NCBI GenBank assembly: GCA_038231135.1
Contig: JBBRLX010000031.1
Span: 1-53,224, forward strand
Length of the DNA stretch: 53,224 nt
Source of the DNA: Candidatus Eiseniibacteriota bacterium
GTDB lineage: Bacteria; Eisenbacteria; RBG-16-71-46
Direction of reading: 5' to 3'
How positions within the stretch are numbered: the first letter of the stretch is position 1; each line of letters starts with the position of its first letter. Below, piece after piece: positions 13,179-48,324 of the stretch. The position numbers and the translations under genes are program-made. The notes beneath the pieces are model-generated. The model made no database searches. It had not been told where the DNA came from and saw only the letters and a list, made by a program, of their open reading frames with translations.

Positions 13179-13904
13179 TCACGGACGCGATCCGAGCGCG
13201 GCACTCGCGGTGGACATCGTGTCGCGATACGCCGGATTGCGCATGCGGGCTTCGATCGCCGCGATCCGGATCCGGCTCATGGCGTGGCGGGGATCGATCG
13301 CCAGCACCTGCCGGTACTGATCCAGGGCTTCGGCGTGCAGGCCTGCAATGTTGTACGCCGACGCCCGCCGGTAGAGCGCCTCCGCACGCTCCACGTCCGA
13401 CGTGGCACACGCCCGCGCCGAGTCGAAGCACGCGATTGCGCGCTGTACGTAGTCCCAGCGCTCGAGGCTCGTGCGCACGGGCGACCGGCCCGTCACGGGA
13501 TCCGCGTCGAACGCGCGATTCTGGAACGCGCTGCCGAGTGCCAGCCGCAGCGCCGCATCCCCGGGCGCGCGCCGCACCAGTTGCTGCCCATAGACGATCG
13601 CGCGCGCCCAGTCGCGCGCGCGCACCGCGTCGTTCGCCCGCCGCGCGAGCGTCTCGCCGGGAACGGCTTCGGACGGCGCCTGCCGCGTGCGCAGGACCCG
13701 CGTGACGAGCACGAACCCCGCGACCACGATCGCAATCGCGACGGCGATCGCCGGCACGACGCCACGCCGCCACGCCGGTCCCGTCGCGGCGCCCGTCGCG
13801 CGCGCGCGGGACTCCGCCGCCGCCGGCGCGCGCGGAGTCGTGCGCCGCGAGCGGTGGGTGCGCGGCGGGCGCGGCGGGCGCGGCGGGCGCGGCGCGCGCG
13901 TCAC
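13179..13904 (-). CDS. Membrane-anchored TPR protein
   Basis: One hydrophobic helix followed by TPR-like motifs (EALDQYRQVLAIDPRH). GTG start overlaps the upstream stop (GTGA). Confidence 0.65.
   Translation of the reverse strand: MTRAPRPPRPPRPPRTHRSRRTTPRAPAAAESRARATGAATGPAWRRGVVPAIAVAIAIVVAGFVLVTRVLRTRQAPSEAVPGETLARRANDAVRARDWARAIVYGQQLVRRAPGDAALRLALGSAFQNRAFDADPVTGRSPVRTSLERWDYVQRAIACFDSARACATSDVERAEALYRRASAYNIAGLHAEALDQYRQVLAIDPRHAMSRIRIAAIEARMRNPAYRDTMSTASAALGSRP
13860..13894. repeat. 9-bp tandem repeat GCGCGGCGG, about 4 copies, encoding (R-P-P)n
   Basis: Read directly. It is in frame within the N-terminus of the TPR protein. Confidence 0.8.
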
Positions 13905-15982
13905 GGGCGCGACTCCACGCTCTCGTGCTCGACCCCGGACGCGCGCGCCGGCACCACCACGGTGCGCGCGGTCGGCAAGCGGGCGGCCAGCGTGCGCGTG
14001 GCCGCGATGCGGGCGCCCTCGGGCACCCACACCCGCGCGGGCACGGCGACCGGCGTCCAGCGCGCCCGCCAGCGTGCGCCGTCGCGGTCGAGCGCGAGCG
14101 TCACGCGCCCGAACCGGGTCGGGGCCGGACCGAATCGCAGGCCATGCCACCACCCGGCGTCGGCGCCCATCGCCAGCTCCAGCGTGTCGCCGTCGTCCTC
14201 AACGATCATGTTGCGCACCAGGTCGACGACGCCCGCGGCCGCGGTCGCGTGCGGCGGCAGATTGGTCCCGAAGTCGCGCGTCGAGTCCGAGAACAGTTCC
14301 GACTGCCCCAGCGTGGAGCTGCTGTGGCGCAGCAAGTCCGCGAGGTAGTCGCGCGCCCAGCGCCCATGTCCCGCGAGCAGCGCCCACTCCGCGAGATCGG
14401 TGCCGAGATAGCTGTGCAACGAATCGGCGGGTCCCCAGCTCACGAGCGCCGGCCCGCGGCGCCGCCACATGCGCCCGGCGAGCGCCGCGAAGCGCGGCGC
14501 CGCCGCGGGCATCGCACCCGTCGGATACGCGAACGCCACATTGCCCCAGTCGCGTCCGATGCCCTGCCACGTGGGTGGAATGTCCGGGCTCGATGTGCGC
14601 TCGAGCGCCGCCGCGACCGCGGCGCCGTAGTCGCGCGCCGCGGCCGCGGCCTCGCCCGCCGCGGCGGGATCCTGGGCGAGCGTCGCGAGCCGCGCCGCCG
14701 CACGGCAGCCGGCGATCGACCACGCGTCATTTCCGGTGTGCTGCGCCTGCGCGAGCTCGCTGTCGCGCGGATCGGCGTAACCCATGAGTCCGCCCCACGG
14801 CGCGCCGGGAACGCGCGTGCGCTCCCGCTCGCGGCCGAGCCAGCGCACCGCGGCCAGCGCCGCCGGCAGCAACTTCCGCGCGAGCGCGCGCGACGGCGGC
14901 TGCGACGCGGCCTGTTCCATCCCCCACACCGCCTGGCCGGTGCCATCGAGTTGACCCATCTGCGACAGGAACGCGCCGTTCGGCAGCTGGAACGGCAGCA
15001 GCGATCGCATGTCGTCGGTCGCGACGTCCGACAGCCCCGCCACGGCCAGCGCGCGCACCACCCGCACGCCGTCGCGCAGCCACACGTCGCGGTACTGGAA
15101 TGGATTGCCGATCGGCACCCAGTGACCGTCGTGTCGCTCCTGGGACAGCAGCATCGTGACCAGCGCCGCGCGATACGCATCGCGCACCCGCGCGTCCGGC
15201 AGCGCGAGCGGCGCTGCCCGGGCGAGCCACCGGCGCCACGTCGCGCGCGCCGCGGTCGCGAGGCCCGCGTGACTCGTCGCCGGCAGGCGCGACGCGAGCC
15301 GTGCGTCCAGTCCATAGGCGGGGATGCGGAACTGCCACGTCGCCGTCGCCCCGTGGTTCGCCGGCAGCCGCCACCGCGCGACCCGCGCCGGCTCGCCGGC
15401 CCCTGAGTCCGGCTCGAGCGTGAGGGTTGCGCCCCCCGGCACCAGCGCCATCACCAGATCGTGATCCATCGCGTTCGAGTCAATCCAGGCGGGCGCCGCA
15501 CCGCCGCGCGCCGCGTCCCACGGCGTGAAACCGGGGCCCGCCGGTTGCCGGGTGATCCGCGCCACCAGACTCGACGGGCTCGGGTCATCCGTAAGGCGAA
15601 TGGCGCGCACGCTCACCGACAGCAGGCTCGTCGTGTCGCCGAGCGCCGGCACGGGTGCGGCCGCCGCTTCGAACTCCACGGAGTCGCGGTCGGTCACCAT
15701 CCACCAGTGGGCGATCGGCGTCGCGTCGGCCTCGAAATACACCGGCGACGTCCGCACCACCCCCGCGCCCTCGAGCCGCCACGTCACGGCGACATCGCCG
15801 GTGGCGACCACGCTGCCCGCTCCGATCTGGAAGGCCCGTCGCGTCCCCGGCACCCCGATGGCGGCGATCGAGTGCGCGAAATACTCCGGCCGCACGCGCG
15901 GCACCCCGGGCGCGGGCGCGCAGCCGGCCGCCAGCGCCAGCAGAACACCTGCGCCGTGCGGTGCCAGCCTCCGCCACGTCAT
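13901..15982 (-). CDS. Lipoprotein with a six-hairpin glycosidase-like (alpha/alpha)6 domain
   Basis: Signal peptide with lipobox LAAGC. GNPFQYRDVWLRDG resembles the YxxxWxRD motif of GH15/GH63/GH78-type barrels. C-terminal APTRFG strand. ATG at 15982 overlaps the integrase stop. Confidence 0.7.
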   Translation of the reverse strand: MTWRRLAPHGAGVLLALAAGCAPAPGVPRVRPEYFAHSIAAIGVPGTRRAFQIGAGSVVATGDVAVTWRLEGAGVVRTSPVYFEADATPIAHWWMVTDRDSVEFEAAAAPVPALGDTTSLLSVSVRAIRLTDDPSPSSLVARITRQPAGPGFTPWDAARGGAAPAWIDSNAMDHDLVMALVPGGATLTLEPDSGAGEPARVARWRLPANHGATATWQFRIPAYGLDARLASRLPATSHAGLATAARATWRRWLARAAPLALPDARVRDAYRAALVTMLLSQERHDGHWVPIGNPFQYRDVWLRDGVRVVRALAVAGLSDVATDDMRSLLPFQLPNGAFLSQMGQLDGTGQAVWGMEQAASQPPSRALARKLLPAALAAVRWLGRERERTRVPGAPWGGLMGYADPRDSELAQAQHTGNDAWSIAGCRAAARLATLAQDPAAAGEAAAAARDYGAAVAAALERTSSPDIPPTWQGIGRDWGNVAFAYPTGAMPAAAPRFAALAGRMWRRRGPALVSWGPADSLHSYLGTDLAEWALLAGHGRWARDYLADLLRHSSSTLGQSELFSDSTRDFGTNLPPHATAAAGVVDLVRNMIVEDDGDTLELAMGADAGWWHGLRFGPAPTRFGRVTLALDRDGARWRARWTPVAVPARVWVPEGARIAATRTLAARLPTARTVVVPARASGVEHESVESRP

Positions 15983-16949
15983 CGTGGCCCCGGGCCGCGC
16001 CGGGCCGGGGTGCCGAGCCATTCGGCGACCGCCCCGGTCGCCTGCGCGAGCAACTCCTCGTCGACGATCAGGTAGCGCCGGAACACCGAGCCGGTCTTGT
16101 GGCCCGTGATCTTCATGGCGATCGCCTGCTGCACGCCGGCCCGAATCAGGTTGCGCACGGCGGTGCGGCGGAAGTCGTGGAGCAGCCGGCCGTGAAGTCC
16201 GGCGCGGTTGCAGGCACCTTGCCACGAGCGTCGCAGCTTCTTCATGGGGCGGCCGTTCCAGGGGAACACTGCGGTGCACAGCCGGTCGTGCGCACGCTCC
16301 CAGCGTGTCACCTGGTCGCGCTGCGCCCGCAACAGCCGTTCGAGCCGCGGATGGTACTTGAACGGGAAGATGCGTGGCTCGCGATTCTTCGAATCATGCA
16401 GCAGCACCGTCTGCCGCGGCCAGTCGATGTCGCTCCACTGCAGCCGGAACGCTTGAAGAACCCCTGGCGGGCATTGTCGACGCGCGGCAGATCGACGAGC
16501 GGGACGCGCGGCAGCCGGCGTGAGCCGAGCCGCAGCATGCGTTTCAGGACCGCGAGCTCGCGACGCAAGGTGGCGGGGGCGACCCGGTCGATGCCGAGGC
16601 GCTTGCGCGAGTACTCCGGGATCCGGTCCTCGGTGATGTCCTCGCTGCGGTAGGCGCCGAAGAATTCACCCAGCCGCTTGAGGTGCGCCGACGGGTCCGA
16701 TCGATTCGCCTCGTAGCGGTAGTTTTCGAGCAGCAGTTCGCGCATATCTTCGAACCGGATTCGTTGCGTCAACTCGACGAATACCCCGCGGCGCACTTCG
16801 TCCAGCCGGTGACGCAGGAATGCCAGCGCCTGCTCACGATCGTCGGTGCCGGCGGACTCGCGCTGAACGCGGACGTCGATGGAGAACCCGATCCACCAAT
16901 GCGGACTATCGGGACGCCGAAACACGCTTCCGCGGCTGAGGCGGGACAT
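15979..16949 (-). pseudogene. Tyrosine recombinase/phage integrase, internally deleted and frameshifted
   Basis: The N-part (ATG 16949: GSVFRR..WWIGF..ATLRRELAVLKRM..DNARQGFF) switches frame near 16450 into the C-part (LQWSDIDW..SKN..HDFRRT..ITGHKT..RRY). The box I arginine segment is missing. Sits below tRNA-Thr. Confidence 0.85.
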
Positions 16950-19810: not shown

Positions 19811-21520
19811 GTGCCGATCGGATCCCTGTCGTTCGTGCTCCACTCCCACCTGCCCTGGGTGCTCCACCACGGCCGCTGGCCGCACGGCGTCGACTGGCTG
19901 AACGAGGCCACCGCCGAGACCTACCTGCCGCTGTGGCGCGTGCTGCACGAGCGCGCGGGGAAAGGCTCGCTCGGCATCACGCTCGATCTGAGCCCGGTGC
20001 TGTGCGAGCAGCTCTCGCACCCCGACTATCCGCGCGAGTTCGTGTCCTACCTCGAGCAGAAGATCGCCGCCGCCCAGGCCGACGCGAGCGCGTTCGAGCA
20101 TGGCGAGGATCCGGCGCTGGCGCCGCTGGCGCACGGCTGGGAGCGGTTCTATCGCTCGACGCTCGAGGAATTCATGGGGCCCTATGGCACCAATCTCGTG
20201 GCGCGGTTTCGGCGGCTCGAGGAGCGCGGCGCGATCGAGATCGTGACGTGCGGCGCCACGCACGGCTACCTGCCGCTGCTGTCGACCGACGCCGCGGTCG
20301 CGGGCCAGATCCGCACCGCGGTCGCGGCGCACCGCCGCCATTTCGGCCGCGCCCCGCGTGGCATCTGGCTGCCGGAGTGCGCCTATCGCCCGGCCGGCCC
20401 GTGGACGTCGCCGGTGCCCGGACCGGCGCCGGCCATGATGCGTGCGGGGCTCGAGGACGTGCTGGAAGCCCACGGGCTCGACTACTTCTTCGTCGACCGG
20501 CATCTGCTGGAGGGCGGCACGCCGCTCGGCGTCTACGCCGACCGGTTCGACGCGCTGCGACACCTGGTGCCGCCGGCCGCGACGGCGGGCTCGGGATCGC
20601 ATCCGCCCTATCGCCCCTACCGGGTCGGCGCGCGCGGCCGCGTCGCGTGCTTCGGACGCGATCCCGTGACCGCCGTGCAGGTGTGGAGCGGCGAGCACGG
20701 TTATCCCGGCGATCCCGTCTATCTCGACTTCCACAAGAAGCGCTTTCCGGGTGGCCATCGCTACTGGGCGGTCACGCATTCGCAGGCCGACCTCGCCGAC
20801 AAGCGTCCCTATGACCCGGACCTGGCGCGCGCGCGCGCGCCGGAACAGGCGCGGCACTTCGTCGGCCTGATCGCCCAGGTGCTGACGGCAGCCGGGCGCC
20901 ACCAGCAGGCGCCGGCGATCGCCTGCCCGATGTACGACACCGAGCTGTTCGGCCACTGGTGGTTCGAAGGCCCCCGATTCCTCGCCGCGGTGCTCGACGC
21001 CGCGGCCGCGGCCGGGATCGAGCTCACGACCACCGGGGCCCATCTCGACCGGCATCCGGCGCGCGATGTCGTGGCGCTGCCCCGTGGCTCATGGGGCGAC
21101 GGCGGCGGCGACGCCGTGTGGCTCAACCCGGGCACCGAGTGGACGTGGCGCCTGCTGGCTGCGGTGGAACACGATCTCGCCGGGCTCGCCCGGCTGGCGC
21201 TCGCGGCGCCCGCCGATCCCTTGCTCGAGCGGCTGATGGCGCAGGCCACGCGCGAGCTCCTGCTGCTCGAGGCGTCCGACTGGCAGTTCCTGATCACCAC
21301 CGGGCCCGCCGGCGACTACGCGACCGAGCGGTTCCACGGCCACGAGTCGGCGTATCGCGAACTCGCGGCACTCGCGGGCCAGCGGCTGACGGGCGGCGCG
21401 CTCAGCGAGTCCGACGAGCAGTCGCTCGCCGCCCTGGAAGCCAAAGACGGGCTGTTCGCGGACGTGGACTGGCGTGCGTATGCGGCGACACCCAGCACGA
21501 CCGTGACGGGCGGCGCGTAA
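19811..21520 (+). CDS. GH57 1,4-alpha-glucan branching enzyme (DUF1957 type)
   Basis: HSHLPWV, ETYLP, ATHGYLPL, GIWLPECAY (nucleophile Glu), YDTELFGHWWFEG (acid/base Asp) and LLEASDWQF motifs. GTG start with GGAGG RBS. Confidence 0.93.
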   Translation: MPIGSLSFVLHSHLPWVLHHGRWPHGVDWLNEATAETYLPLWRVLHERAGKGSLGITLDLSPVLCEQLSHPDYPREFVSYLEQKIAAAQADASAFEHGEDPALAPLAHGWERFYRSTLEEFMGPYGTNLVARFRRLEERGAIEIVTCGATHGYLPLLSTDAAVAGQIRTAVAAHRRHFGRAPRGIWLPECAYRPAGPWTSPVPGPAPAMMRAGLEDVLEAHGLDYFFVDRHLLEGGTPLGVYADRFDALRHLVPPAATAGSGSHPPYRPYRVGARGRVACFGRDPVTAVQVWSGEHGYPGDPVYLDFHKKRFPGGHRYWAVTHSQADLADKRPYDPDLARARAPEQARHFVGLIAQVLTAAGRHQQAPAIACPMYDTELFGHWWFEGPRFLAAVLDAAAAAGIELTTTGAHLDRHPARDVVALPRGSWGDGGGDAVWLNPGTEWTWRLLAAVEHDLAGLARLALAAPADPLLERLMAQATRELLLLEASDWQFLITTGPAGDYATERFHGHESAYRELAALAGQRLTGGALSESDEQSLAALEAKDGLFADVDWRAYAATPSTTVTGGA

Positions 21521-21544
21521 CGCGACGGGCCCGGGCGCGCGGGG

Positions 21545-22015
21545 CTAGGGCTCGCCCGCGTCCGAGCGCGTCATGGCCGATCGGAGCGCGTCGGGCACGC
21601 GCGGCGCCCGGGTGAGCATCTCTGCCAGATGCGGGGTGGGGCGCGCCGGGCGGCCGCCGCGGTCGAGGAAGCAGTGGTGCGTGAAGCCGAACGCGAGCGT
21701 CGCCGCCTCGCGCACGACGCGATAGCCGAATCGCACCGACGCGCGGCTCAGCGCCAGCACCCCGGTCTCGATCGACACCAGGTCGTCGTAGCGCGCCGCG
21801 TCCCGGTAGCGGCACCACGCCTCGAGCACCGGCAGCGACACGCCGGACTCCTCCACCTCGCGATAGCTGGTGCCAAGCGACCGCAGCATCTCGGCGCGGC
21901 CGATCTCGAACCACCTGAGATAATTCGCGTAGTAGGCGAACCCCATTTGATCGGTGTCGCCGTAGCGGACCCGCAGTTCGAATCGATGCACCGGGTCTCC
22001 TTCAGTGAGTTCCAT
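21545..22015 (-). CDS. YbgC/FadM-family acyl-CoA thioesterase
   Basis: RVRYGDTDQMGFAYYANYLRWFEIGR motif. Confidence 0.92.
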   Translation of the reverse strand: MELTEGDPVHRFELRVRYGDTDQMGFAYYANYLRWFEIGRAEMLRSLGTSYREVEESGVSLPVLEAWCRYRDAARYDDLVSIETGVLALSRASVRFGYRVVREAATLAFGFTHHCFLDRGGRPARPTPHLAEMLTRAPRVPDALRSAMTRSDAGEP

Positions 22016-22964
22016 GGCCCGCGCGCGCCGCCGCGGCCACGCTGCCGGCCACCGCTGCCCCGGGTCCGGCATCCGGGCTCACGCGGGCGCCCCCCGCGGG
22101 CGGCCGCGTCTTCCAGCGACGGTGAAGCCAGAACCACAGTTCGGGCTGCTCGCGCACGCGGCGTTCGAGCGCCGCGACGTGGAGCGCGGTGAGGCGCTCC
22201 GCGGCGTCGGGCGCCGCTGGATCGAGGACGACGAGCGGCGGATCGACGTCGATCTCGTGGCGGCCATCGGGACGGCGCAGATCGAACCCCATCACGATCG
22301 GGGCACCGGTGGCGAGCGCGATGCGCGCGGGTCCGATCGCGGTGCTCGCCGGGCGGCCGAGGAACGGCACGAACACCCCGGCCCGCCGCGCGTCCTGATC
22401 GCCGAGCATCGCGACCCAGCGGTTGGCGCGCAACGCCTGGTACACGCGCCTGAGCCCCGCTCCCGCCGGGATCGTCTCCACTCCCGCCCGGCCGCGCTGC
22501 CGCGTGATCCAGGCGTCGACGCGCGGATTCGACAGCGGCTTCACGACGAACGCCACCGGGTGCCGGCGACCGAGCCAGGCGCCGAGCAGCTCGATGTTGC
22601 CGAAGTGCCCGCTGAGCAGGATCGCGCCGCGGCCGTCCGCCCGCGCGCGTTCGAGATGCTCGAGGCCGCGCGCGTCCGCGAGCACGTCGCCCGCCGCGGC
22701 CAGGACCAGCTCGGGCAGCCGCGTGTACTCGGCGACGATGCGGCCGAGCTCGCGATAGTGGGCGGCGAGGATGGCGTCGCGCGCGGCGGGTGCGAGCGCC
22801 GGGAACGCGTGCCGCAGGTTGTCGCGCGCCACACGGGCCCTGAGCCCCAGCCGCCGCGTGATGTCGCCGAGCACGGCGCCGGCGGCGAGTGCCGCGCGCC
22901 GCGGCAGCGCGCCGAGCACGGCGCTCGAGCCCTCGACGAGCGCGGCCTCGAGCGCGTGTTTCAC
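22002..22964 (-). CDS. Lipid A lauroyl/lysophospholipid acyltransferase (LpxL/HtrB family)
   Basis: GHFGNIE, LGDQDA, VPFLG and PELWFWLHRRWK motifs. GTG start overlaps the dprA stop. Confidence 0.9.
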   Translation of the reverse strand: MKHALEAALVEGSSAVLGALPRRAALAAGAVLGDITRRLGLRARVARDNLRHAFPALAPAARDAILAAHYRELGRIVAEYTRLPELVLAAAGDVLADARGLEHLERARADGRGAILLSGHFGNIELLGAWLGRRHPVAFVVKPLSNPRVDAWITRQRGRAGVETIPAGAGLRRVYQALRANRWVAMLGDQDARRAGVFVPFLGRPASTAIGPARIALATGAPIVMGFDLRRPDGRHEIDVDPPLVVLDPAAPDAAERLTALHVAALERRVREQPELWFWLHRRWKTRPPAGGARVSPDAGPGAAVAGSVAAAARAGHGTH

Positions 22965-23950
22965 GCCGCGCGCCAGCGCGGCCCGGGTTCCGCCACCGCC
23001 AGCCCCGACCACTCGAGCGGCACCAGGGCCGCGAGCGTCTGATCCACGGCGAGCCCGCTCCGGGCCGCGAGCACGTCGAGCGTCGCGGGCACCGCCGAGA
23101 GCACCGCCAGCAGCCGTGCCTCGGGCGTCGTGGGTGTGGCGAACGCGCCGGGCATCGCGGCGGCGGCGCCGGTCGCGGCGGCGGAGGGCGGCCGCGCGCC
23201 GCGGCGGCCGGCGGGCGCCACCGCCGCGCGTCCCGTCATCGCCGCCAGGACGTCGCGCGCGTCCTCGCACACGAGCGCCCCCTGGCGCAGCAGCCGATGA
23301 CATCCGCGCGAGGTCGCGCGACTCACGTCGCCGGGCACCGCGAGCACCGGGCGGCCCAGCCGTCGGGCCCAGCCGGCGGTGCCGAGCGCCCCGCTCTCGA
23401 CCGCCGCCTCGACCACGACCGTCACCACGGCGAGGGCGGCGATCAGCCGGTTGCGCTCGAGGAACTCCCCGCGATGGCGCGGTCCGCCCGTCGCCAGCTC
23501 GGTGACGAGCGCGCCGTGCGCGGCGATGCGCCGCGCGAGCGCCGTGTGGGTGGCGGGCGTGATCGTGTCGAGCCCCGACGGCAGCACCGCCACCGTGTCG
23601 CCGCCGGCGTCGAGCGCACCCGTGTGCGCGGCGGCGTCGATGCCCCGGGCCAGGCCGCTCACCACCGGCACGCCGAGCCGGCCGAGATCGGCGGCGAGCC
23701 GCTGCGCGATCGCGAGCCCGTACGCGGTCGCCGCGCGCGATCCCACGATCGCGACCATCGGCACCCGGGGCAGCGCGCCGGCTACGAACAGCGTGCCGGG
23801 CGGGTTGGCCAGGTCGCGCAGCCCCGCGGGATAGGCCGCGTGCCCGGCATCCCACGCCGCCGTCGCGGCCGGCGGCCGGCTCCGGTCCGCGGCCGGCGCC
23901 GCGTCGGGCTCTGCCCCGGCATTGCGGCTTGGGTCAGCTCCGGCCGTCAC
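22961..23950 (-). CDS. dprA: DNA-processing protein DprA
   Basis: VAIVGSR, VSGLARGIDAAAH, FLERNRLIA and VVVEAAVESGAL motifs, plus a C-terminal winged helix. Start approximate. Confidence 0.92.
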   Translation of the reverse strand: MTAGADPSRNAGAEPDAAPAADRSRPPAATAAWDAGHAAYPAGLRDLANPPGTLFVAGALPRVPMVAIVGSRAATAYGLAIAQRLAADLGRLGVPVVSGLARGIDAAAHTGALDAGGDTVAVLPSGLDTITPATHTALARRIAAHGALVTELATGGPRHRGEFLERNRLIAALAVVTVVVEAAVESGALGTAGWARRLGRPVLAVPGDVSRATSRGCHRLLRQGALVCEDARDVLAAMTGRAAVAPAGRRGARPPSAAATGAAAAMPGAFATPTTPEARLLAVLSAVPATLDVLAARSGLAVDQTLAALVPLEWSGLAVAEPGPRWRAA

Positions 23951-24593
23951 CGTCCTCCTCGCGCGCGGAAGCGATGGACGGGGGACCGGTGAGCACCTCC
24001 CATTCGACACCCTCCTCGGTCGCACGCACGGCACTGCTGTCGTCGGACAGCGCGTCGATGTCCGAGGCGGTCATCAGCTCCTCGCTGCGCGTCAGCCGGT
24101 CGATGCGGTCGGCCAGCGGCCGGTCGCGCGCCGCGAGCTCGTCGAGCCGCGCGCGGCGGGCGTCGGGCGGCAGCCGGTGGATCGCGTGCGCGATACGCAC
24201 CGCGCCGTGCTGATGGCCGATCACGACCAGCGCGTCGCGCGCGGCTTCGGCCACGGTGCGATTCGCGTCGTCGGTGAGGCGCAACAGCCCGGGCACCGCC
24301 GGCCGAAAGCCCATGCGGCCGAGCACGCGGGCGGCGCTCACCCGCGTGAACCACAGGCCGTCCTCGAGCAGCGGCAGCAGTGCCGCGGCGCCGCGGTCGC
24401 CGAGCTTGGGGAACGACTGTTCCGCCAGGTCCCTCAGGAACCACGATTCGTCGCACAGGCATTCAACCATCAGCGACACCGCTTCGGCGTCGCCGCGCCC
24501 CGCGAGATCGTTCACGTACTCGCGCTTCGAGTTGAGCGCCCGCGCGTTGAGCACATCGACCGCCTTCGACTGACCGTACTTGTCATCCGTCAT
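23934..24593 (-). CDS. HEAT-repeat protein
   Basis: Repeated L-x-D-x-x-W-F-x-R...A-A-x-x-L-G helical units. Confidence 0.75.
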   Translation of the reverse strand: MTDDKYGQSKAVDVLNARALNSKREYVNDLAGRGDAEAVSLMVECLCDESWFLRDLAEQSFPKLGDRGAAALLPLLEDGLWFTRVSAARVLGRMGFRPAVPGLLRLTDDANRTVAEAARDALVVIGHQHGAVRIAHAIHRLPPDARRARLDELAARDRPLADRIDRLTRSEELMTASDIDALSDDSSAVRATEEGVEWEVLTGPPSIASAREEDGDGRS

Positions 24594-25584
24594 GTTCGCT
24601 CTCCGCCGGAACGGGCGCCATGCGCGCCCACAGGATCTCCTTCAACTCGTCGATGCCGGCCCCGGTGTGCGCGCTGATCACGAGCGCGCCGGGGATGCCG
24701 CTCGTCCGCGCCGCGTCCGCCCGCTCCTCGGGAGGCAGCAGGTCCGCCTTGGTCAGCGCGATCACGCGCGGCTTGTCCGCCAGTCCGGCATCGTGCAGTG
24801 CGAGCTCGCGCTCGACCACCGCCAGATCCGCGGCCGGTGACTCCGAGGATACGTCGGCCAGGAACAGCAGCACGCTGCAGCGTTCGACATGCCGCAGGAA
24901 TTGCAGTCCGAGCCCGCGGCCGGCGTGCGCGTCCTCGATCAGGCCCGGCACGTCGCAGGCGACGAACTGCCGCTCGGCGTCGAGCACCACGATGCCCAGA
25001 TTCGGCTCGAGCGTCGTGAACGGATACGAATCGATCTTCGGCCGCGCGCGCGACACCCGCGCGAGCAGCGTGGACTTGCCGGCGTTCGGCAACCCGACGA
25101 ACCCGACATCGGCGATCAGCTTGAGCTCGAGCGCGAGGGCGCGCTCCTCACCCGGCACGCCGTCGTCGGCGCGGCGCGGCGCCTGGTTCGTGGAGGTCGC
25201 GAACCGCGCGTTGCCGCGGCCGCCGCGGCCGCCCGTGGCGGCGAGATAGCGGTCACCCGGCGCCACGAGATCGGCGAGGACCGCGCCGTGCTCGTCGTAC
25301 ACCACCGTGCCCGGCGGCACGCGCAACACGAGATCCGCGCCGTTCTTGCCCGTGCGATTGTTGCCCGAGCCCGCGTCACCGCTGTTCGCACGGTAGCGCG
25401 GCCGTTCGCGGAAATCCAGCAGCGTGCGGATGCGCGCATCGACCTCGAGGATCACCGAGCCGCCGGTGCCGCCGTCGCCACCGTCGGGTCCGCCCTTGGG
25501 CACGTACTTCTCGCGCCGGAAGCTGATGCAGCCCCGGCCGCCGTTGCCGGCGATCGCCTTCACCTTCGCGTGATCGATCAGCAT
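24583..25584 (-). CDS. obgE: GTPase ObgE/CgtA
   Basis: FRREKYVPKGGPDGGDGG, GLPNAGKST, YPFTTLEPNLG, DVPGLI and TKAD motifs. Confidence 0.98.
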   Translation of the reverse strand: MLIDHAKVKAIAGNGGRGCISFRREKYVPKGGPDGGDGGTGGSVILEVDARIRTLLDFRERPRYRANSGDAGSGNNRTGKNGADLVLRVPPGTVVYDEHGAVLADLVAPGDRYLAATGGRGGRGNARFATSTNQAPRRADDGVPGEERALALELKLIADVGFVGLPNAGKSTLLARVSRARPKIDSYPFTTLEPNLGIVVLDAERQFVACDVPGLIEDAHAGRGLGLQFLRHVERCSVLLFLADVSSESPAADLAVVERELALHDAGLADKPRVIALTKADLLPPEERADAARTSGIPGALVISAHTGAGIDELKEILWARMAPVPAESEHDG

Positions 25585-25600
25585 CCGGGCCGCCGCGCCG

Positions 25601-27457
25601 TCATGCTGCGCGCCGTTCGCGGCTCATGAGGCCGCCCGCGCGCACCCGCGCGAGCTCGTAACCGTCGAGCTCGTGCGCCAGCAGCGACTGGTCGCCGCGC
25701 GTCAGGTCGCGCACCGTCACCGGGCGTCCGGGCTCGAGATCGTCGAGCCCGGACGGCAGCTCGAGCTCGTCGCCGGCGCGGAACCCGCCCGACTCGCGCA
25801 GCGGCCGTACCAGCGGCAGCACGCCGCTGTGGACCAGCGCCTGGGCGGCGCCCGGCGCATAGCTGGTCGCGATCACCACGGTGATGCCGAGCCGGGCCAG
25901 GAGCCAGGCCGCGAGATCGGCGCGCGCCCCGCCCAGAAATCCGCGCCCGGCCAACAGCCAGCCGCCGCCCGCCGCGCGGGCGTGGGCGGCGAATCCCGGC
26001 GCGAGCGGCCGGAACACCAGCGCCGTCAGCGCATCGGGGGCCGCGGCCGCGGCGCGCGGGCCCCACGGCACCACCTGGTCCGCGCGCACGTCGTCGCCGG
26101 CTTCGAGCAGCACGACGCCGCGGCGCGTGAACGGGGCCCGCGTCACCGGCGGCGCCGGCGCGGCCGCGGCCTCGGGCGCCAGCAGGCTGAGCGGATCCGC
26201 CGCATACGTGACGGGCTCGGGAGCGGGCTCGGTGGCGGCGTCGGCGCTTGCGAGCGCGCGCGGGTCGGTGACCACGCCGGTGAGCGCCGCCGCGGCACAG
26301 CTCTCGAGGCTCGCCCGCCAGTCGCAGCGTTCGTCGTCGACCGCGAACGCCAGTGTGACGCCCTCCGCGCGCAACCCGCCCGCGGGCTCGTGGCCGTCGG
26401 CGGCGAACCGCACGCCGGCGGCGGCGAGGTCCTGCCACACGCCGGTCGCGTGCGCGGTCTCCACGATGCGCCGGCTGCCGGCGACCACGACGCACGTCAC
26501 CGCGGGGTCGAGCGTGCGGCCCCGCAGCGCCGCCGCCAGCACGGCCCAGTCGCCATAGGTCGCACCCGCGCCGATCACCACGCGGCGCACCGCGCTGCCC
26601 GCGGCATGCCGCACCGCGCGCACCGCATCCGGCTCGCCGAACCGCACGAGCCACGGCTCCACCGTCTCGAGCTCGAGCGTGAACTCGTCCGCGTCCGGGG
26701 CTGCGTCCACGCCCCAGCGCTTCCAGTCGGCGTCGCGACCCTGCGCGCGCAGGTAGGCATGCGTGAGGTCGTCGGACCCGAACAGCACCGCCGCCGCGCG
26801 CAGCGTCGGCGCCGCGGCGGCCACGGCGAACCGGTCGCGCATCGCGAGCCGCGACGCCCCCGAGATCTCGATCACGCTCCCCGGCGCGTAGCGCGCGCGG
26901 CGGCCGATCTCGATCGCGATGTCGTGCCCGCTGACGCCGAGCCCGGGCGCGCCGGCCAGTCGCACCGCCGCCACCGGAGGTTCGTGCAGCGCGTGCGGCA
27001 CGCCGGCCAGCGCGGCCGCCGCCTCGAGCCGGTCCACCGGCAGCGCCAGCGTGCCGAGGGCGCCCGCCATCGCGAGTCCGGGCGCGCACCCCAGCGCCAC
27101 CCGCCCCGGCGCCGCGAAGCGCTCGGCATAGACGTGCGCGGCCCGGCCGCTGCCGGCGCGCGCCACGTGCAAACCCGACTCGCGGGCCGCGCGCGCCAGC
27201 GCGGCCGCGCGCGGCTCCTCGGCGCCGCCGCGAACGCCGCGCGCATCGAGCGCCAGCAGCGCCAGCGGTACCTGGCTGCCGCCGGCCACCGGGTCGCGGA
27301 ACGCCCACAGCGCGAACGCGCCGTCGCGCTCACCGAGCACGACGTGATCGGGTCTGACCCGGCAGAGCGGCGCCGCGGCGTCGCGCGTCGAGTCGCGATG
27401 GGTGTCGAGCAGCGCGGCCAGCAGCGTGCCCGCGCGTGCGGGCGCCGAACCCGTCAT
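25601..27457 (-). CDS. Aconitase-family protein, predicted catalytically inactive
   Basis: Colinear with single-chain approximately 640-aa aconitases (ERFAAPG, YLRAQGRDADW, GSRRI, AAAALTGVVTDPR, GVLPL, AGGL), but the active-site motifs are replaced (see findings). Confidence 0.8.
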   Translation of the reverse strand: MTGSAPARAGTLLAALLDTHRDSTRDAAAPLCRVRPDHVVLGERDGAFALWAFRDPVAGGSQVPLALLALDARGVRGGAEEPRAAALARAARESGLHVARAGSGRAAHVYAERFAAPGRVALGCAPGLAMAGALGTLALPVDRLEAAAALAGVPHALHEPPVAAVRLAGAPGLGVSGHDIAIEIGRRARYAPGSVIEISGASRLAMRDRFAVAAAAPTLRAAAVLFGSDDLTHAYLRAQGRDADWKRWGVDAAPDADEFTLELETVEPWLVRFGEPDAVRAVRHAAGSAVRRVVIGAGATYGDWAVLAAALRGRTLDPAVTCVVVAGSRRIVETAHATGVWQDLAAAGVRFAADGHEPAGGLRAEGVTLAFAVDDERCDWRASLESCAAAALTGVVTDPRALASADAATEPAPEPVTYAADPLSLLAPEAAAAPAPPVTRAPFTRRGVVLLEAGDDVRADQVVPWGPRAAAAAPDALTALVFRPLAPGFAAHARAAGGGWLLAGRGFLGGARADLAAWLLARLGITVVIATSYAPGAAQALVHSGVLPLVRPLRESGGFRAGDELELPSGLDDLEPGRPVTVRDLTRGDQSLLAHELDGYELARVRAGGLMSRERRAA

Positions 27458-27458
27458 G

Positions 27459-27941
27459 TCACGCACCCCCCGACCGGCGTCCGCGTTTGCCGCTCGCGGA
27501 TGACGGCCGCGCAGAGGCCTTGGACGCCGACTTCGAGGCGCCGCGGCCCGGGCGCCCGGACGCTGCCCCGGCGGCGGACGCACCGCCTGAACTCCCGGCA
27601 TCGGCCTTGGTGCCGGACGAAGTTCCGGCGCTGTCCTTCGCGGCGGGCGCGGCAGCGGCGCCGTCGGAGCCGCCCTTCGCCGACTTGGTGTCGCCCGCGC
27701 TGTCCGCTCCGCCCTTCGACTCGACGGCCCGCTCCTGCTTGGCCTGCTCCTTATATGACTTGCTGCGGTAGTCGGTGATGTAGAACCCTGAGCCCTTGAA
27801 CAGGAGCCCGGCGCCCGCGGACGGCACGCGGTGCGCCTTGCTCCGGCACTTCGGGCAGCGCTTCATCGCGTCGTCCGACATGCTGTGAAACAGCTCGAAG
27901 CGATGGCCGCACTTGCGGCATTCGTAGTCATAGGTCGGCAT
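27459..27941 (-). CDS. FmdB-family zinc-ribbon protein with a long low-complexity tail
   Basis: MPTYDYECRKCGHRFE...CPKC...FKGSGFYITDY, followed by an A/G/S/K-rich tail. Confidence 0.9.
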   Translation of the reverse strand: MPTYDYECRKCGHRFELFHSMSDDAMKRCPKCRSKAHRVPSAGAGLLFKGSGFYITDYRSKSYKEQAKQERAVESKGGADSAGDTKSAKGGSDGAAAAPAAKDSAGTSSGTKADAGSSGGASAAGAASGRPGRGASKSASKASARPSSASGKRGRRSGGA

Positions 27942-28010
27942 GCGTGCTCCTGACGAATGCATCCACGGGCGGCTGCGGCCGGCAGCCCGCGACGGAAATT
28001 CCGGTGCGAC

Positions 28011-29021
28011 TCATGGCTCGTGCCGCGGCGCCGCGGCGGCGAGCGCGCACGAGATGGTGGCGACGCCGACGATGTCGTCGGCGCTGCAGCCGCGCGACAG
28101 GTCGTTCGCCGGACGCGCGAGTCCCATGAGAATCGGTCCGAACGCCTCGGCGCCCCCCAGGCGCTGCACCAGCTTATACCCGATGTTGCCGGCGTCGAGG
28201 TCAGGGAAGATCACCACGTTCGCGTGTCCCGCCACGACGCTGCCGGGCGCCTTACGCGATCCCACGTCCGGATCGAGCGCCGCATCGGCCTGCAGCTCGC
28301 CGTCGAGATGCAGATCGGGCCGCGCCGCGCGCGCCAGCGCGACCGCCTCGCGCACCTTGGTCACGTGCGGATGGTCGGCGCTGCCGCGGGTCGAGAACGA
28401 CAGGAACGCCACGTGCGGGATCTCGCGCAGCAGACGCGCGTAGTGGTCGGCGGCGAGGATGCCGATCTCGGCGAGCTGCGCCGGCGTGGGATCCGGCACC
28501 ACCGCGCAGTCGGCGAACATCACCACCCGCTCGGGGTGGGGCGCCCTGCCCATCACCATGATGAAGAACGAGCTGAGCGTCTTGACACCCGGGGCCAGTC
28601 CCACGAGCCACAACGACGCGCGCAGCACGTCGGCGGTGGTGCGCGTGGCGCCGGCGACGAAGTTGTCGGCGAGCCCGGTCCCCACCCGCGCCGCGGCCTG
28701 GAACAGCGGGTCCCGCGCGTAGCGGTCGCGATCCGCGGCCGGCAGCTTGTCGCCGCGGCGCTCGGCCAGCAGGCGCGACGTGCGCTCGATCTCCTCGGGC
28801 GCCTCGGAATCGATCACCGGAATCCCGCCCAGCGCCACGCCCGCGGCGCGCGCGCTGTGACGCGCGCCGGCGGCGGGGCCGACCAGCGCCACGTCCGCGA
28901 TGCGCTCGCGCATCAGCCGCTCGGCGGCACGCAGCACGCGCGGGTCGCCGGTCTCGGGCAGCAGCAGCCGCTGCACACGCACGGTCGCGGCGCGGCGGAT
29001 GCGGTCGAGCACGGCACTCAT
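28011..29021 (-). CDS. pta: Phosphate acetyltransferase (short form)
   Basis: LPETGDPRV, FADCAV, LSFSTRGS, DGELQADAA and FPDLDAGNIGYKL motifs. Confidence 0.95.
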   Translation of the reverse strand: MSAVLDRIRRAATVRVQRLLLPETGDPRVLRAAERLMRERIADVALVGPAAGARHSARAAGVALGGIPVIDSEAPEEIERTSRLLAERRGDKLPAADRDRYARDPLFQAAARVGTGLADNFVAGATRTTADVLRASLWLVGLAPGVKTLSSFFIMVMGRAPHPERVVMFADCAVVPDPTPAQLAEIGILAADHYARLLREIPHVAFLSFSTRGSADHPHVTKVREAVALARAARPDLHLDGELQADAALDPDVGSRKAPGSVVAGHANVVIFPDLDAGNIGYKLVQRLGGAEAFGPILMGLARPANDLSRGCSADDIVGVATISCALAAAAPRHEP

Positions 29022-29578
29022 GCGCGCTTCCGGGCACGCTTCGCGGGGGTGCGGCCGCGTGTGCCGGAGTGCACGGTGGCGCCCGGCTTGCGGGCTCCGA
29101 ACCGCGCCTTGAGCGCGTCCTCGGTGATGCGCGGCACCAGTCCGCGCACCGAGCCGCCGAGTCGCGCCACCTCCTTGACCAGCGTGGAGTTGAGATACGT
29201 GTACTGCTGGCTCGGCATCAGGTACGCCACCTCGAGCCCGGGCGACAGCTTGCGATTCATCAGCGCCATCTGGAACTCGAACTCGAAGTCACTCACCGCG
29301 CGCAGGCCGCGGATCATCACGGCGGCGCCGACCTCCTTCGCGCAGTCGACCACCAGCCCGGAGAAATCCACGACCTCCACCGTGCGCAGCGATTTCGTCA
29401 CGGTGCGGATCATGTCCACACGCTCCTCGTGCGTGAACATCGCGCCCTTGCCGGGATTGTGCGCGACCGCCACGATCACCCGGTCGAACATGCGGACGGC
29501 GCGGCAGGTGAGATCCAGATGCCCGTTCGTGAACGGGTCGAAGGTCCCCGGGAACAGCGCGGTGCGGTCGTTGCTCAT
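29018..29578 (-). CDS. coaD: Pantetheine-phosphate adenylyltransferase
   Basis: FPGTFDPFTNGH and IRGLRAVSDFEFE motifs. Confidence 0.98.
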   Translation of the reverse strand: MSNDRTALFPGTFDPFTNGHLDLTCRAVRMFDRVIVAVAHNPGKGAMFTHEERVDMIRTVTKSLRTVEVVDFSGLVVDCAKEVGAAVMIRGLRAVSDFEFEFQMALMNRKLSPGLEVAYLMPSQQYTYLNSTLVKEVARLGGSVRGLVPRITEDALKARFGARKPGATVHSGTRGRTPAKRARKRA

Positions 29579-29589
29579 CGCCGATCTCC

Positions 29590-30144
29590 TCAGGACGGTG
29601 CTTCATTCAGGTAGGTCGTCACCGCGGTCTCGCCGTAACGCCGTGAACGCGACTGCACGAGAGTGCCCGCGCGCTCGGGCAGCTCATCACGCGTGTGATG
29701 CTCCGCCACCACGCGCGCGCCGCTTCGCAGCCACCCGGCGCCGAGCCGTTCCACCGCGGCCGTCGCGAGCCCCAGCCGGTACGGCGGATCGAGCAACACC
29801 AGATGTGCGGCGCCGAGCGCCGCTCGCAGCGGCTTCAAGCCCAGCGTCAGATCCAGGGTCCAAACCGTTGCGAGATCGTCGAGTCCGAGGCGGGTCAGGT
29901 TGCCGCGGAGCACCGCCACCGCCGAACCCCGCCGCTCGACGAAGTCGGCGTGCGAAGCGCCCCGCGACAGCGCCTCGATGCCCAGCGCCCCCGAGCCCGC
30001 GTAGAGATCGACGACCCGCAGCCCGGTGAGCGGTTCGAGCGCCATGAACAGCGCCTCGCGCACCCGATCGGACGTCGGTCGTGTCTCGCTCCCGCGCGGA
30101 GCTTCGAGCTTGCGCCCTCCCAGCGATCCCGCGATCACGCGCAC
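29590..30144 (-). CDS. rsmD: 16S rRNA m2G966 methyltransferase RsmD
   Basis: MRVIAG, RPTSDRVREALF, DLYAGSGALGIEALSRGA and DPPY motifs. Confidence 0.96.
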   Translation of the reverse strand: MRVIAGSLGGRKLEAPRGSETRPTSDRVREALFMALEPLTGLRVVDLYAGSGALGIEALSRGASHADFVERRGSAVAVLRGNLTRLGLDDLATVWTLDLTLGLKPLRAALGAAHLVLLDPPYRLGLATAAVERLGAGWLRSGARVVAEHHTRDELPERAGTLVQSRSRRYGETAVTTYLNEAPS

Positions 30145-30155
30145 TTGAGCCCGCG

Positions 30156-30185
30156 AGTCTCACCCACTGCTTCGAAGGGTGTCAA
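30156..30185 (-). promoter_or_regulatory. Putative sigma-70 promoter for rsmD-coaD-pta
   Basis: TTGACA-18 nt-GAGACT on the minus strand, ending 11 nt above the GTG start. Confidence 0.45.
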
Positions 30186-30286
30186 GCGCTTGCGGTGCTT
30201 GCGCATCCGTGAGTGGACCTGCCGCGCCGCGCCCGCCGTCCGTCACGCGTGCGATCGACAGGCGTAGGGGGTATCGCGCGGCGTGA

Positions 30287-30919
30287 TCAGTGGAGCGGCA
30301 CCACCGCGAAGCCGGGCGGCGCCTCGAGCACGAACGCGGCGGGGCCCTTCGGCTTCGCGAACGTCCAGCCGCGAAACCGGTAGCGGGCGGCGGCCCCCGG
30401 CGTGTCCTCCACCTCGAGCACCAGCGGCAGGCCGTTCGGCCCGAGCGTGATCGTCGCGTGGTCCTCGGGCAGCCCGTCGCGTGCCGCCGCCGTGACCGTC
30501 CAGCGGCGCGGCCCCGCCTTCACCGCCGAGAACGCGGCAGGATCGGCGCCGAGCAGGAACCGCCACCAGCGGTAGGCGCCCGAGGCGTCGCCGGCCGAAA
30601 ACCGGATCATCTGCTTCAGGTTGGGCTCGAGCCACTCGCCGCCGTCGGCACGCAGCGTGAGCCGCTCGCCGGTCTGCGTGAATTCGAGCCGAGCGCGATC
30701 CGGCCATTCGAGCGCGAGCCGTCCCGGCACCACGCGCGCCGCCCCCGACATCGGATCCGTGCCCTCACGTTCGAGCCGGGTCTCGGCGCGGCCGCTCGCG
30801 CGCAGCCGGCTCGCGAACGCCGTCATCACCGGCGCGACCGGCCGGGCGGGCGCCGGCGCGGGGCGCAGCACGAACAGGATTGCGACGGCGATCGCACCCC
30901 GCACGGCGCGCGCGCTCAC
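30287..30919 (-). CDS. LolA-like outer-membrane lipoprotein carrier
   Basis: Signal peptide. GRLALEWPDRARLEF..DGGEWLEPNLKQ and the C-terminal F..PPG pattern match LolA. Confidence 0.75.
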   Translation of the reverse strand: MSARAVRGAIAVAILFVLRPAPAPARPVAPVMTAFASRLRASGRAETRLEREGTDPMSGAARVVPGRLALEWPDRARLEFTQTGERLTLRADGGEWLEPNLKQMIRFSAGDASGAYRWWRFLLGADPAAFSAVKAGPRRWTVTAAARDGLPEDHATITLGPNGLPLVLEVEDTPGAAARYRFRGWTFAKPKGPAAFVLEAPPGFAVVPLH

Positions 30920-31764
30920 AGCTTGCCCAGCCGGGCGATCGCGCGCCTCAGATCGTCGCGCGTGACCCGCGCAGCGCCCGCGGGCACGGCGACCATCAGC
31001 CGCGACCGATCGGGGGCGCGGCGGAACGTCACGTTCTGGACGTGGCAGCGCAGCCCGTAGTCGCCGGTGGCATCCGCCACTTCGAGCGCCGACGGCCACA
31101 GCACGCCGTCCCACGTGCTCCACCCTAAGTAGTCCGCGCGCGCCCCGCCGTGCCCCTCGCGATCGAACGCCACGCTGCGCGGCAGCCCGTTGCTGCCGAC
31201 CGCGAGCCGCACGCTGTCGCCCTGTTCCATCCAGCGCAGCATCAGCAGCGAATCGTCCCAGGTCGCAGACTTCCACGCCGCGGCCGGCGGGACCCACGCT
31301 GCGCTCCACAGCCGGTAGCCGAGCCGGCCGGGATCGGCGACGCCCAGCGAATCGCCGGCACTCTCGGTGGTGAGCGCCATCCGGCGCGGCGGCACGTAGG
31401 CGGTCACCGAATCGCCGCGCGCCGACACGTCGAGCGCGATGCCGAACAGCGACCCCACGCGCATGCGGAACCCGTCGGGGCCCACGAGCAGCAGCCGCGC
31501 CTGTACGCCCGGCAGGTCCGGCAGCTTGGAGCCGCTGGCCCAGGCGTTGAGCTCGGCCTCGGCCGCGAGGTGCGAGGTGCGACCCACGATCGCGGCCTCG
31601 AAACGCGCGCGGCGCGGCGCCTCGGCCAGCTCCGGCACCACGACCGGCCGCGGTGCGCAGCCCTGGTAGCCGAGCGCCGCGGTGGCGATCAACACGAGCC
31701 ACCCGCCGCCGGCGCGCCGGCCAATCACGCCCCCCCGCCGCGAGCCCACCCGCCGCACGCTCAC
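30916..31764 (-). CDS. Lipoprotein, LolB/DUF4292-like
   Basis: Hydrophobic stretch ending in YQG-C. GPDGFRMRVGSLFG..GDSVTAYVP resembles LolA/LolB-fold DUF4292 proteins. Confidence 0.55.
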   Translation of the reverse strand: MSVRRVGSRRGGVIGRRAGGGWLVLIATAALGYQGCAPRPVVVPELAEAPRRARFEAAIVGRTSHLAAEAELNAWASGSKLPDLPGVQARLLLVGPDGFRMRVGSLFGIALDVSARGDSVTAYVPPRRMALTTESAGDSLGVADPGRLGYRLWSAAWVPPAAAWKSATWDDSLLMLRWMEQGDSVRLAVGSNGLPRSVAFDREGHGGARADYLGWSTWDGVLWPSALEVADATGDYGLRCHVQNVTFRRAPDRSRLMVAVPAGAARVTRDDLRRAIARLGKL

Positions 31765-47211: not shown

Positions 47212-47224
47212 CTCGTCCTCCTGT

Positions 47225-48295: not shown

Positions 48296-48324
48296 GTTGC
48301 GTCTCCTTGTCGTTCCAGCCTGGA

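Follow-up and report, generated by a model that had tools for sequence, protein, structure and literature searches.

The window, a 53,224-nucleotide (nt) stretch comprising contig JBBRLX010000031.1 of a Candidatus Eiseniibacteriota bacterium, carries on its minus strand a gene for an aconitase homolog of 618 amino acids (aa), here named pAcn, in which the ligands of the iron–sulfur (Fe-S) cluster and the catalytic residues of aconitases are replaced or deleted. The gene is packed between a gene for an FmdB-family protein and obg (Table 1).

A 618-aa frame and its boundaries

The pAcn frame runs without a stop from an ATG at 27457. The G+C content is 64–78% in the window and 73–77% over the pAcn open reading frame (ORF) region, and three overlapping ORFs longer than 570 aa were found between 25.6 and 27.8 kb, one of which, on the minus strand, was protein-like. 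The other two were discarded as antisense or off-frame artefacts with Arg/Gly-rich nonsense translations. The G+C fractions at the first, second and third codon positions of the pAcn frame (0.83, 0.60 and 0.93) were even across the gene and matched those of its neighbours. A longer, 666-aa version starting from an ATG at 27601 was also rejected; we took the shorter frame as the gene because the upstream start overlaps the FmdB gene and the orthologs align only from M49 of the longer version. The FmdB stop and the pAcn start read TGAcATG, a gap of 1 nt, and 16 nt separate the pAcn stop from the ATG of obg. An earlier note on this DNA had given both distances, which could be read directly in the DNA, and had described the uninterrupted frame as colinear with single-chain aconitases; the latter was borne out by the match to the NCBIfam model NF005558, colinear over residues 14–614.

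Table 1. Coordinates of pAcn, its segments and associated genes (window positions unless a locus is named).
Feature	Position	Strand	Basis
pAcn, cluster-less aconitase-fold gene, 618 aa	25601..27457	-	translation, Pfam/NCBIfam, AF2, VIA, family orthologs
pAcn stop codon	25601..25603	-	
pAcn residues 1-400, former domains 1-3	26258..27457	-	motif tables, 4kp2 superposition
pAcn residues 401-445, variable linker between domains 3 and 4	26123..26257	-	conservation, dN/dS, pLDDT
pAcn residues 446-618, LeuD-like swivel domain 4	25604..26122	-	conservation (63 vs 17 sequences), LeuD superposition
FmdB-family CxxC...CxxC zinc-ribbon gene	27459..27962	-	Zn_ribbon_8 58.3 bits, TIGR02605 69.2 bits, junction, ortholog alignment
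obg (GTPase ObgE/CgtA)	24583..25584	-	NCBIfam NF008955 429.6 bits (cut-off 406), TIGR02729 410 bits
IDH-family gene, 369 aa (another genome)	L002:368-1477	-	same slot in L011, L018, L024, L026, L067

Loss of cluster ligands and catalytic residues

The motifs of pAcn were compared with those of the intact homolog L021 (a locus of genome G038, which belongs to a sister family within the class), and the solved mitochondrial aconitase served as a second reference. Against L021, VDHNT is changed to LDARG, GICHQ to GRAAH, GSDSHT to GCAPGL, TTDDI to RADQV and GSSREH to GARADL; GSCTNS has become GA--GA with the deletion of two residues, the cysteines of CGPCIG are replaced by other residues, and NRNFKGR is deleted. 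The losses of the His and of the Asp-Ser-His motif were likewise seen in the alignment to mitochondrial aconitase. In real aconitases, domains 1–3 are the sites of the three Cys, the His, the Asp-Ser-His triad and the NRNFxGR loop, all of which are replaced or deleted in pAcn. Thus, none of the three [4Fe-4S] Cys ligands (SCTN, CxxC) is present, and the DH motif, the GxxHQ His, Asp-Ser-His, the NRNFxGR Arg and the GSSRE Ser/Arg have each been replaced or deleted; the roles of these catalytic and substrate-contacting residues are those established for pig mitochondrial aconitase. The structural motifs AERFAAPG, AQGRDADW, AALTGVVTDPR, SGVLPL and RAGGL are all present in the translation. The motif losses listed in the earlier note were hence each seen again, as was the survival of the structural motifs that it had named.

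These changes extend to the whole pAcn clade. Among its 63 members, the most frequent residue in the former ligand, catalytic and substrate columns reaches a frequency of 0.2–0.5 (or the column is deleted), compared to 0.94–1.0 in 17 intact relatives, and no replacement set of invariant polar residues appeared at the old active site in the 63 sequences. Since the old active-site columns are unconstrained, the site does not appear to have been rebuilt. The earlier note had raised the prospect of an alternative Cys cluster; we could exclude such a site, as the clade has no three conserved Cys and only one semi-conserved Cys column (C387, in 75% of the clade), which is Ala in the intact enzymes. 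On these motif comparisons, pAcn is a pseudoenzyme of the aconitase superfamily, and we regard this assignment as solidly documented.

Family match and predicted fold

The Pfam Aconitase model (PF00330) matched pAcn in two stretches with 87.5 bits (cut-off 28.7). The Aconitase_C model (PF00694) gave 20.2 bits, slightly below its cut-off of 22.8, and reached 41 bits in the clade member P0013; the swivel domain is supported by superposition on LeuD, as described below. The Pfam scan of pAcn revealed no added domain, and PADLOC returned no family for pAcn or the FmdB-family protein. The highest-scoring NCBIfam model was NF005558 (‘aconitate hydratase’; 193.7 bits, cut-off 612), followed by TIGR01342 (165 bits, cut-off 719). 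Scores on both of these single-chain models thus remained below one-third of the curated cut-offs, and pAcn does not reach the equivalog score of a functional aconitate hydratase. AcnA models matched only residues 126–244, with 52.7–55.6 bits against cut-offs of 686–945, which places pAcn outside the AcnA/IRP sequence group.

Its nearest known relatives are the single-chain aconitases (NF005558 PRK07229/TIGR01342 acon_putative), represented by the intact L021. The two proteins are colinear over their full length (618 vs 649 aa), have the same four-domain order and are 28–30% identical, and pAcn nests inside this group in trees. pAcn differs from it in the losses described above, which take in the three Cys, the His and Ser, the Asp-Ser-His triad and the NRNFxGR loop.

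An AlphaFold2 (AF2) model built from a 29-sequence alignment (A1) had a mean predicted local distance difference test score (pLDDT) of 87.5 and a predicted template modelling score (pTM) of 0.90. The sole internal segment with pLDDT below 50, residues 356–363, falls at the expected place of Cys2 and Cys3, and the linker (residues 401–445) scored 57–84. In a Foldseek search the top match was mitochondrial aconitase (1b0m, pig/bovine; E = 3.9e-36), followed by IRP1, an integrative model of AcnA with isocitrate dehydrogenase (IDH; 9a4j), large subunits of homoaconitase and isopropylmalate isomerase, AcnB and IRP2. VIA-align superposed 606 residues on holo mitochondrial aconitase (5acn and 1c96) with Z of 36.9. 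Residues 10–401 of the model aligned to the homoaconitase large subunit with Z of 37.4 (4kp2) and 36.8 (4kp1), and residues 441–618 to LeuD small subunits with Z of 18.7–19.0. LeuCD and HacAB are two-subunit Fe-S enzymes with intact ligands, whereas pAcn is a single chain without them. As predicted by the model, pAcn has the overall four-domain aconitase fold, including the LeuD-like swivel domain.

Distribution and origin

We searched 151 genomes of the phylum with the A1 profile, 60 from the window's family in the GTDB (f1, including the window's own genome) and 91 from other families. Within the family, 46 of the 60 genomes matched at E ≤ 1e-100, and nine more had strong but incomplete matches, which lay at the ends of contigs or in split frames; three had weak matches only, and two (94% and 88% complete) had none. 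A single genome of the 91 outside the family passed 1e-100; this was G038, with its fully intact copy, and all others scored at most 236 bits. pAcn is kept across at least 25 genera, and its indels, in more than 20 genera, are all in frame. The three Cys and the Asp-Ser-His triad are missing from all 29 family loci returned by the profile search; the same losses were seen in 19 family sequences aligned earlier, many of which come from the same genomes as the 29 loci.

A profile search of 1.84 billion representative proteins returned 1129 at E ≤ 1e-30. For the Cys count and the trees we used 117 full-length proteins drawn from the listed matches and the reference loci. All three Cys are missing from 70 of these, 14 retain one or two, and the remaining 33 have the full set. 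Those 63 Cys-less proteins that are closest to pAcn (representatives at 50% identity) formed one clade with support of 100 in FastTree, and a 29-row subset of the clade had a support of 99 by the SH-aLRT test in IQ-TREE. The trees thus assign the Cys-less pAcn proteins to a single origin. The sister of the clade, P0033, retains the Asp-Ser-His triad and one Cys. Around the clade lies a grade of partly degenerate forms, which includes at least one other Cys-less clade, and the Cys-less state requires a minimum of five changes on a 56-row tree.

Two subgroups of TIGR01342-like aconitase homologs keep the Asp-Ser-His triad, GSSRE and CxxC, but their first cluster Cys is replaced by Ser: P0073, P0093, P0143 and P0162 (GSSANP...CNGCIG...PRNFPGR) and P0087, P0107, P0110 and P0115 (GSSVNS...CGPC[IV]G). 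P0060, P0064, P0071, P0078, P0080 and P0033 represent further, partly degenerate lineages. Loss of the cluster ligands seems to have occurred several times in the TIGR01342-like group. A pattern search of the genome contigs with P0004 gave 66 matches, none of them a relative; the like search with the G013 ortholog recovered that ortholog alone, and alignment A1 offered no stretch of sufficient conservation for such a search.

The window's genome (93% complete) has an AcnA-type gene with all motifs intact on another contig, and a LeuC-like gene is likewise encoded elsewhere in it. This AcnA (contig C32, ~45916–50000, locus L048) bears an intein-like insertion of 465 aa exactly within the CxxC ligand motif. 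The first residue of the insertion is Cys, its last two are His-Asn, followed by a Cys, and it matches the Pfam model Intein_splicing (39.1 bits, cut-off 35.8). AcnA matches with open frames of 1394–1487 aa in six other genomes (G004, G008, G015, G018, G023 and G026) suggest that relatives share this insertion.

Selection on pAcn

We estimated the ratio of nonsynonymous to synonymous substitution rates (dN/dS) in one pair and one trio of loci, independent of each other, with neighbouring genes measured alike as controls; dS was 0.6–1.8 or more, near saturation, so the values are rough. Between L002 and L032 (75% protein identity), pAcn gave 0.18 by NG86, 0.12 by YN00 and 0.09 by maximum likelihood (ML), compared to 0.12, 0.06 and 0.06 for Pta; the N-terminal parts of FmdB and Obg gave 0.06–0.09 by NG86. 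In the trio L033, L035 and L036 (68–73% identity), the pAcn values were 0.33–0.35 (NG86) and 0.07–0.11 (ML), and those of Obg 0.16–0.19 and 0.06–0.08. By segment (NG86), dN/dS was 0.09–0.12 for residues 1–270, 0.25 for residues 271–400, highest in the linker (0.50) and 0.21 in domain 4. These estimates indicate that pAcn is under purifying selection, about twofold weaker than on its housekeeping neighbours. The weaker constraint fits the lower between-genus identity of pAcn (35–54% vs 60–80% for the neighbours).

We considered whether pAcn could be a functionless relic, kept only through translational coupling to obg and the cost of a highly expressed misfolded protein. Its evolution at about twice the rate of its neighbours would agree with this, and stops are rare in DNA of 75% G+C, so long open frames arise by chance. 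There are also broken copies: the one in G009 (L030, G009:C30) has an in-frame TAG and split frames and may be a true pseudogene, and the one in G012 (L027, G012:C4) is split over two frames. The latter, however, is likely an assembly error, since the adjoining Pta is frame-split too. The dN/dS values, at 0.09–0.35, are not near 1; 23 columns are invariant among 29 sequences that are only 32–55% identical; and the gene has been retained across the genera listed above, whereas deletion is the usual fate of unused genes in bacteria. We therefore consider a relic quite unlikely. The earlier note's proposal of a dedicated pseudoenzyme has held up well: the losses are shared by all 29 family loci, as would not be expected of recent decay, the Cys-less proteins form a single clade, dN/dS is well below 1, and an intact aconitase is encoded elsewhere in the genome.

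Conserved residues of the clade

Gly, Pro and Asp of the structural core make up most of the residues that the pAcn clade and the intact group both conserve. Comparison of the 63 pAcn sequences with the 17 intact ones showed that D244 and W245 (DWKR motif, after the GR(D/E) motif), R446, G466, R468, L477, R526, D563, E564, E566, R583, L585, T586 and G588 are conserved in the clade only, most of them in domain 4; position 526 is Thr in the window's pAcn, though Arg is conserved in the clade. The linker has the lowest conservation. The conservation pattern makes R446, R468, E564, E566 and R583 of domain 4, together with D244 and W245, our best candidates for a contact surface.

Purifying selection across all domains is also what one would expect if pAcn were a cluster-independent enzyme that carries out a new reaction in a rebuilt pocket. 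This seems to us very unlikely, as the columns of the former pocket are unconstrained and have gained no invariant polar residues in exchange, the loop that binds the substrate has been deleted, and the few clade-specific charged residues lie mostly in domain 4 and form no obvious catalytic constellation.

Gene neighbourhood

pAcn belongs to a co-directional string on the minus strand: PilMOQ ... AroK, an unknown gene, RsmD, CoaD, Pta, FmdB, pAcn, Obg, a HEAT-repeat protein, DprA, a lipid-A-type acyltransferase and a thioesterase. Members of the family share the order Pta-FmdB-pAcn-Obg-HEAT, and the gap between FmdB and pAcn was −4 to +23 nt in 19 of the 22 loci measured. A scan of positions 21500–30500 for promoters and terminators gave no site of either kind, and Rfam had no match in positions 21000–31000. 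The sequencing runs listed as holding this stretch were all DNA metagenomes, with no RNA run among them.

Outside the family, the content of the slot between FmdB and obg varies. In three genomes from three other families (G025, G028 and G038), FmdB lies directly upstream of obg without pAcn between them, and in G039 a flavin adenine dinucleotide (FAD)-linked oxidase occupies the slot. In three more, from outgroup families without pAcn (G030, G036 and G040; loci L045, L046 and L047), the slot holds a 369-aa gene of the isocitrate/homoisocitrate dehydrogenase family. Because the slot is either empty or filled with the IDH-family gene or the FAD oxidase in other families, gene order indicates that the FmdB–Obg adjacency predates pAcn, which is inserted into an older housekeeping string.

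This bears on the suggestion of the earlier note that FmdB, pAcn and ObgE form an undescribed system. Taken further, FmdB and pAcn would be co-translated, bind each other and modulate Obg or the ribosome. In favour of such a system are the FmdB-pAcn-(IDH)-Obg order of every flanked family locus, save one without an FmdB match, the short FmdB–pAcn gaps and the lack of a terminator-like site in the scanned region. The shared synteny expected by the note was thus found as far as the order within the family goes, but FmdB and obg are paired in families without pAcn as well, with an oxidase or the dehydrogenase alone in the slot of some. In addition, the neighbours (RsmD, CoaD, Pta, HEAT, DprA and the acyltransferase) are mixed housekeeping genes, so adjacency carries little functional weight. 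The case for a system is weakened by the ancestral adjacency and the varied slot content, and we give it little credence.

A link that the earlier note had missed is to the dehydrogenase. An ortholog of the outgroup gene (63–73% identity) stands directly after pAcn and before obg in six genera of the family (G001, G003, G006, G008, G024 and G110), which thus keep the order FmdB-pAcn-IDH-Obg; the start of the dehydrogenase gene and the pAcn stop overlap in L002. It matched NF006529 with 383.6 bits, below the equivalog cut-off of 510, so that its substrate is unsure. The gene is absent from the FmdB–obg slot of the window, and the best match in the window's genome, 45% identical, lies elsewhere. 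pAcn might, then, be the remnant of an acn-icd operon and serve as a non-catalytic scaffold or regulatory partner of the isocitrate/homoisocitrate dehydrogenase, preserving the aconitase–IDH contact of a tricarboxylic acid (TCA) cycle metabolon while AcnA catalyses. Besides the six genera and the start/stop overlap, the presence of the dehydrogenase in the slot of the outgroup genomes, which implies that the aconitase gene was inserted beside it, and the AcnA–IDH model among the fold matches point this way. The window's genome and most genera, however, have lost the dehydrogenase from the slot yet keep pAcn, and the dehydrogenase itself falls short of its equivalog cut-off. We regard such a partnership as unlikely.

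A candidate binding role

The reading we prefer is that pAcn descends from a single-chain aconitase of the TIGR01342/NF005558 type, has lost both cluster and catalysis, is maintained by purifying selection throughout the family and probably acts as a non-catalytic binder of RNA or of a protein partner. We hold this binding role, which is drawn by analogy, with about even confidence, and favour it because the fold survives whole, the pocket has not been rebuilt and binding is, to our knowledge, the only known non-catalytic use of the aconitase fold (IRP1/IRP2 and bacterial apo-aconitases). Among Fe-S enzymes, aconitase is the classic example of moonlighting in RNA binding upon loss of the cluster. 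Apo-IRP1, IRP2 and the mRNA-binding bacterial apo-aconitases (CitB, AcnA and AcnB) share the fold and bind without a cluster, and IRP1 and IRP2 are among the fold matches of pAcn. IRP1, CitB and IRP2 keep the cluster cysteines. Moonlighting is reported for the apo form of S. aureus CitB, a precedent for binding by a cluster-free aconitase (PMC11317140).

The gene orders suggest how a binder of this kind may have arisen. The ancestral order would have been FmdB-IDH-Obg, and in the ancestor of the family an aconitase gene would have been inserted between FmdB and the IDH-family gene. The inserted aconitase may then have become redundant with AcnA and lost its cluster. Later the dehydrogenase would have been lost from the slot in most genera, the window's included, while pAcn stayed, retained presumably for another activity, one for which the fold alone suffices.

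Several points weigh against a binding role. The role is argued from analogy, and the known RNA-binding aconitases (IRP1, CitB, AcnA and AcnB) belong to the AcnA/IRP and AcnB groups, with pAcn outside both and scoring only 55.6 bits on an AcnA model with a cut-off of 905. The AF2 model is nearer to closed holo-aconitase (Z of 36.9) than to the open, RNA-bound IRP1 (Z of 22), which may in part reflect a preference of AF2 for the closed form. The median isoelectric point of the clade is 6.0, just as in the intact relatives, and pAcn is thus not a basic protein. Many of the clade-specific residues of domain 4 stand in motifs generic to LeuD-like domains and may be structural. The roughly twofold faster evolution and the broken copy in G009 described above count on the same side.

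A more specific form of the binding role would be that a permanent ‘apo-aconitase’ evolved independently in Eisenbacteria. Having given up its cluster, it would be dedicated to regulation, either post-transcriptional or by protein binding, would be co-translated with the zinc-ribbon protein and the ribosome GTPase Obg, and would be a bacterial counterpart of IRP2 derived from a different aconitase subgroup. We find this possible but doubtful.

A search of the open-access literature found nothing on cluster-less bacterial single-chain aconitase homologs. In pAcn the switch from enzyme to cluster-free form would have been made permanent and long held, as judged by its spread over at least 25 genera and 63 clusters at 50% identity, and such a protein would allow the non-catalytic activity of the fold to be studied free of enzyme activity. 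At least one public source labels members of the pAcn clade ‘aconitate hydratase’; when the metabolism of Eisenbacteria is reconstructed, pAcn genes should be left out of the TCA-cycle enzymes.

Other observations in the region

The FmdB-type protein has an invariant N-terminal part of 70 residues (MPTYxY...C..C...C..C...GSGFYxTDYRS) and a Gly/Ser/Lys-rich tail of low complexity, whose length and repeat unit differ per genus (86–167 aa in total). In the ortholog alignment (A3) its true start is probably the ATG at 27941, the annotated ATG at 27962 lying about seven codons too early. Two long minus-strand ORFs, at 30287–31702 and 13901–16279 (471 and 792 aa), have a coding-like G+C content at third codon positions and match no Pfam family at E ≤ 1e-4. 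A 617-aa ORF at 22002..23855 on the minus strand is not one gene, as only its residues 306–583 correspond to the lipid-A-type acyltransferase; the DprA gene (22961..24034, minus strand; DNA_processg_A, 213.9 bits) runs in another frame over the 5′ half of this ORF.

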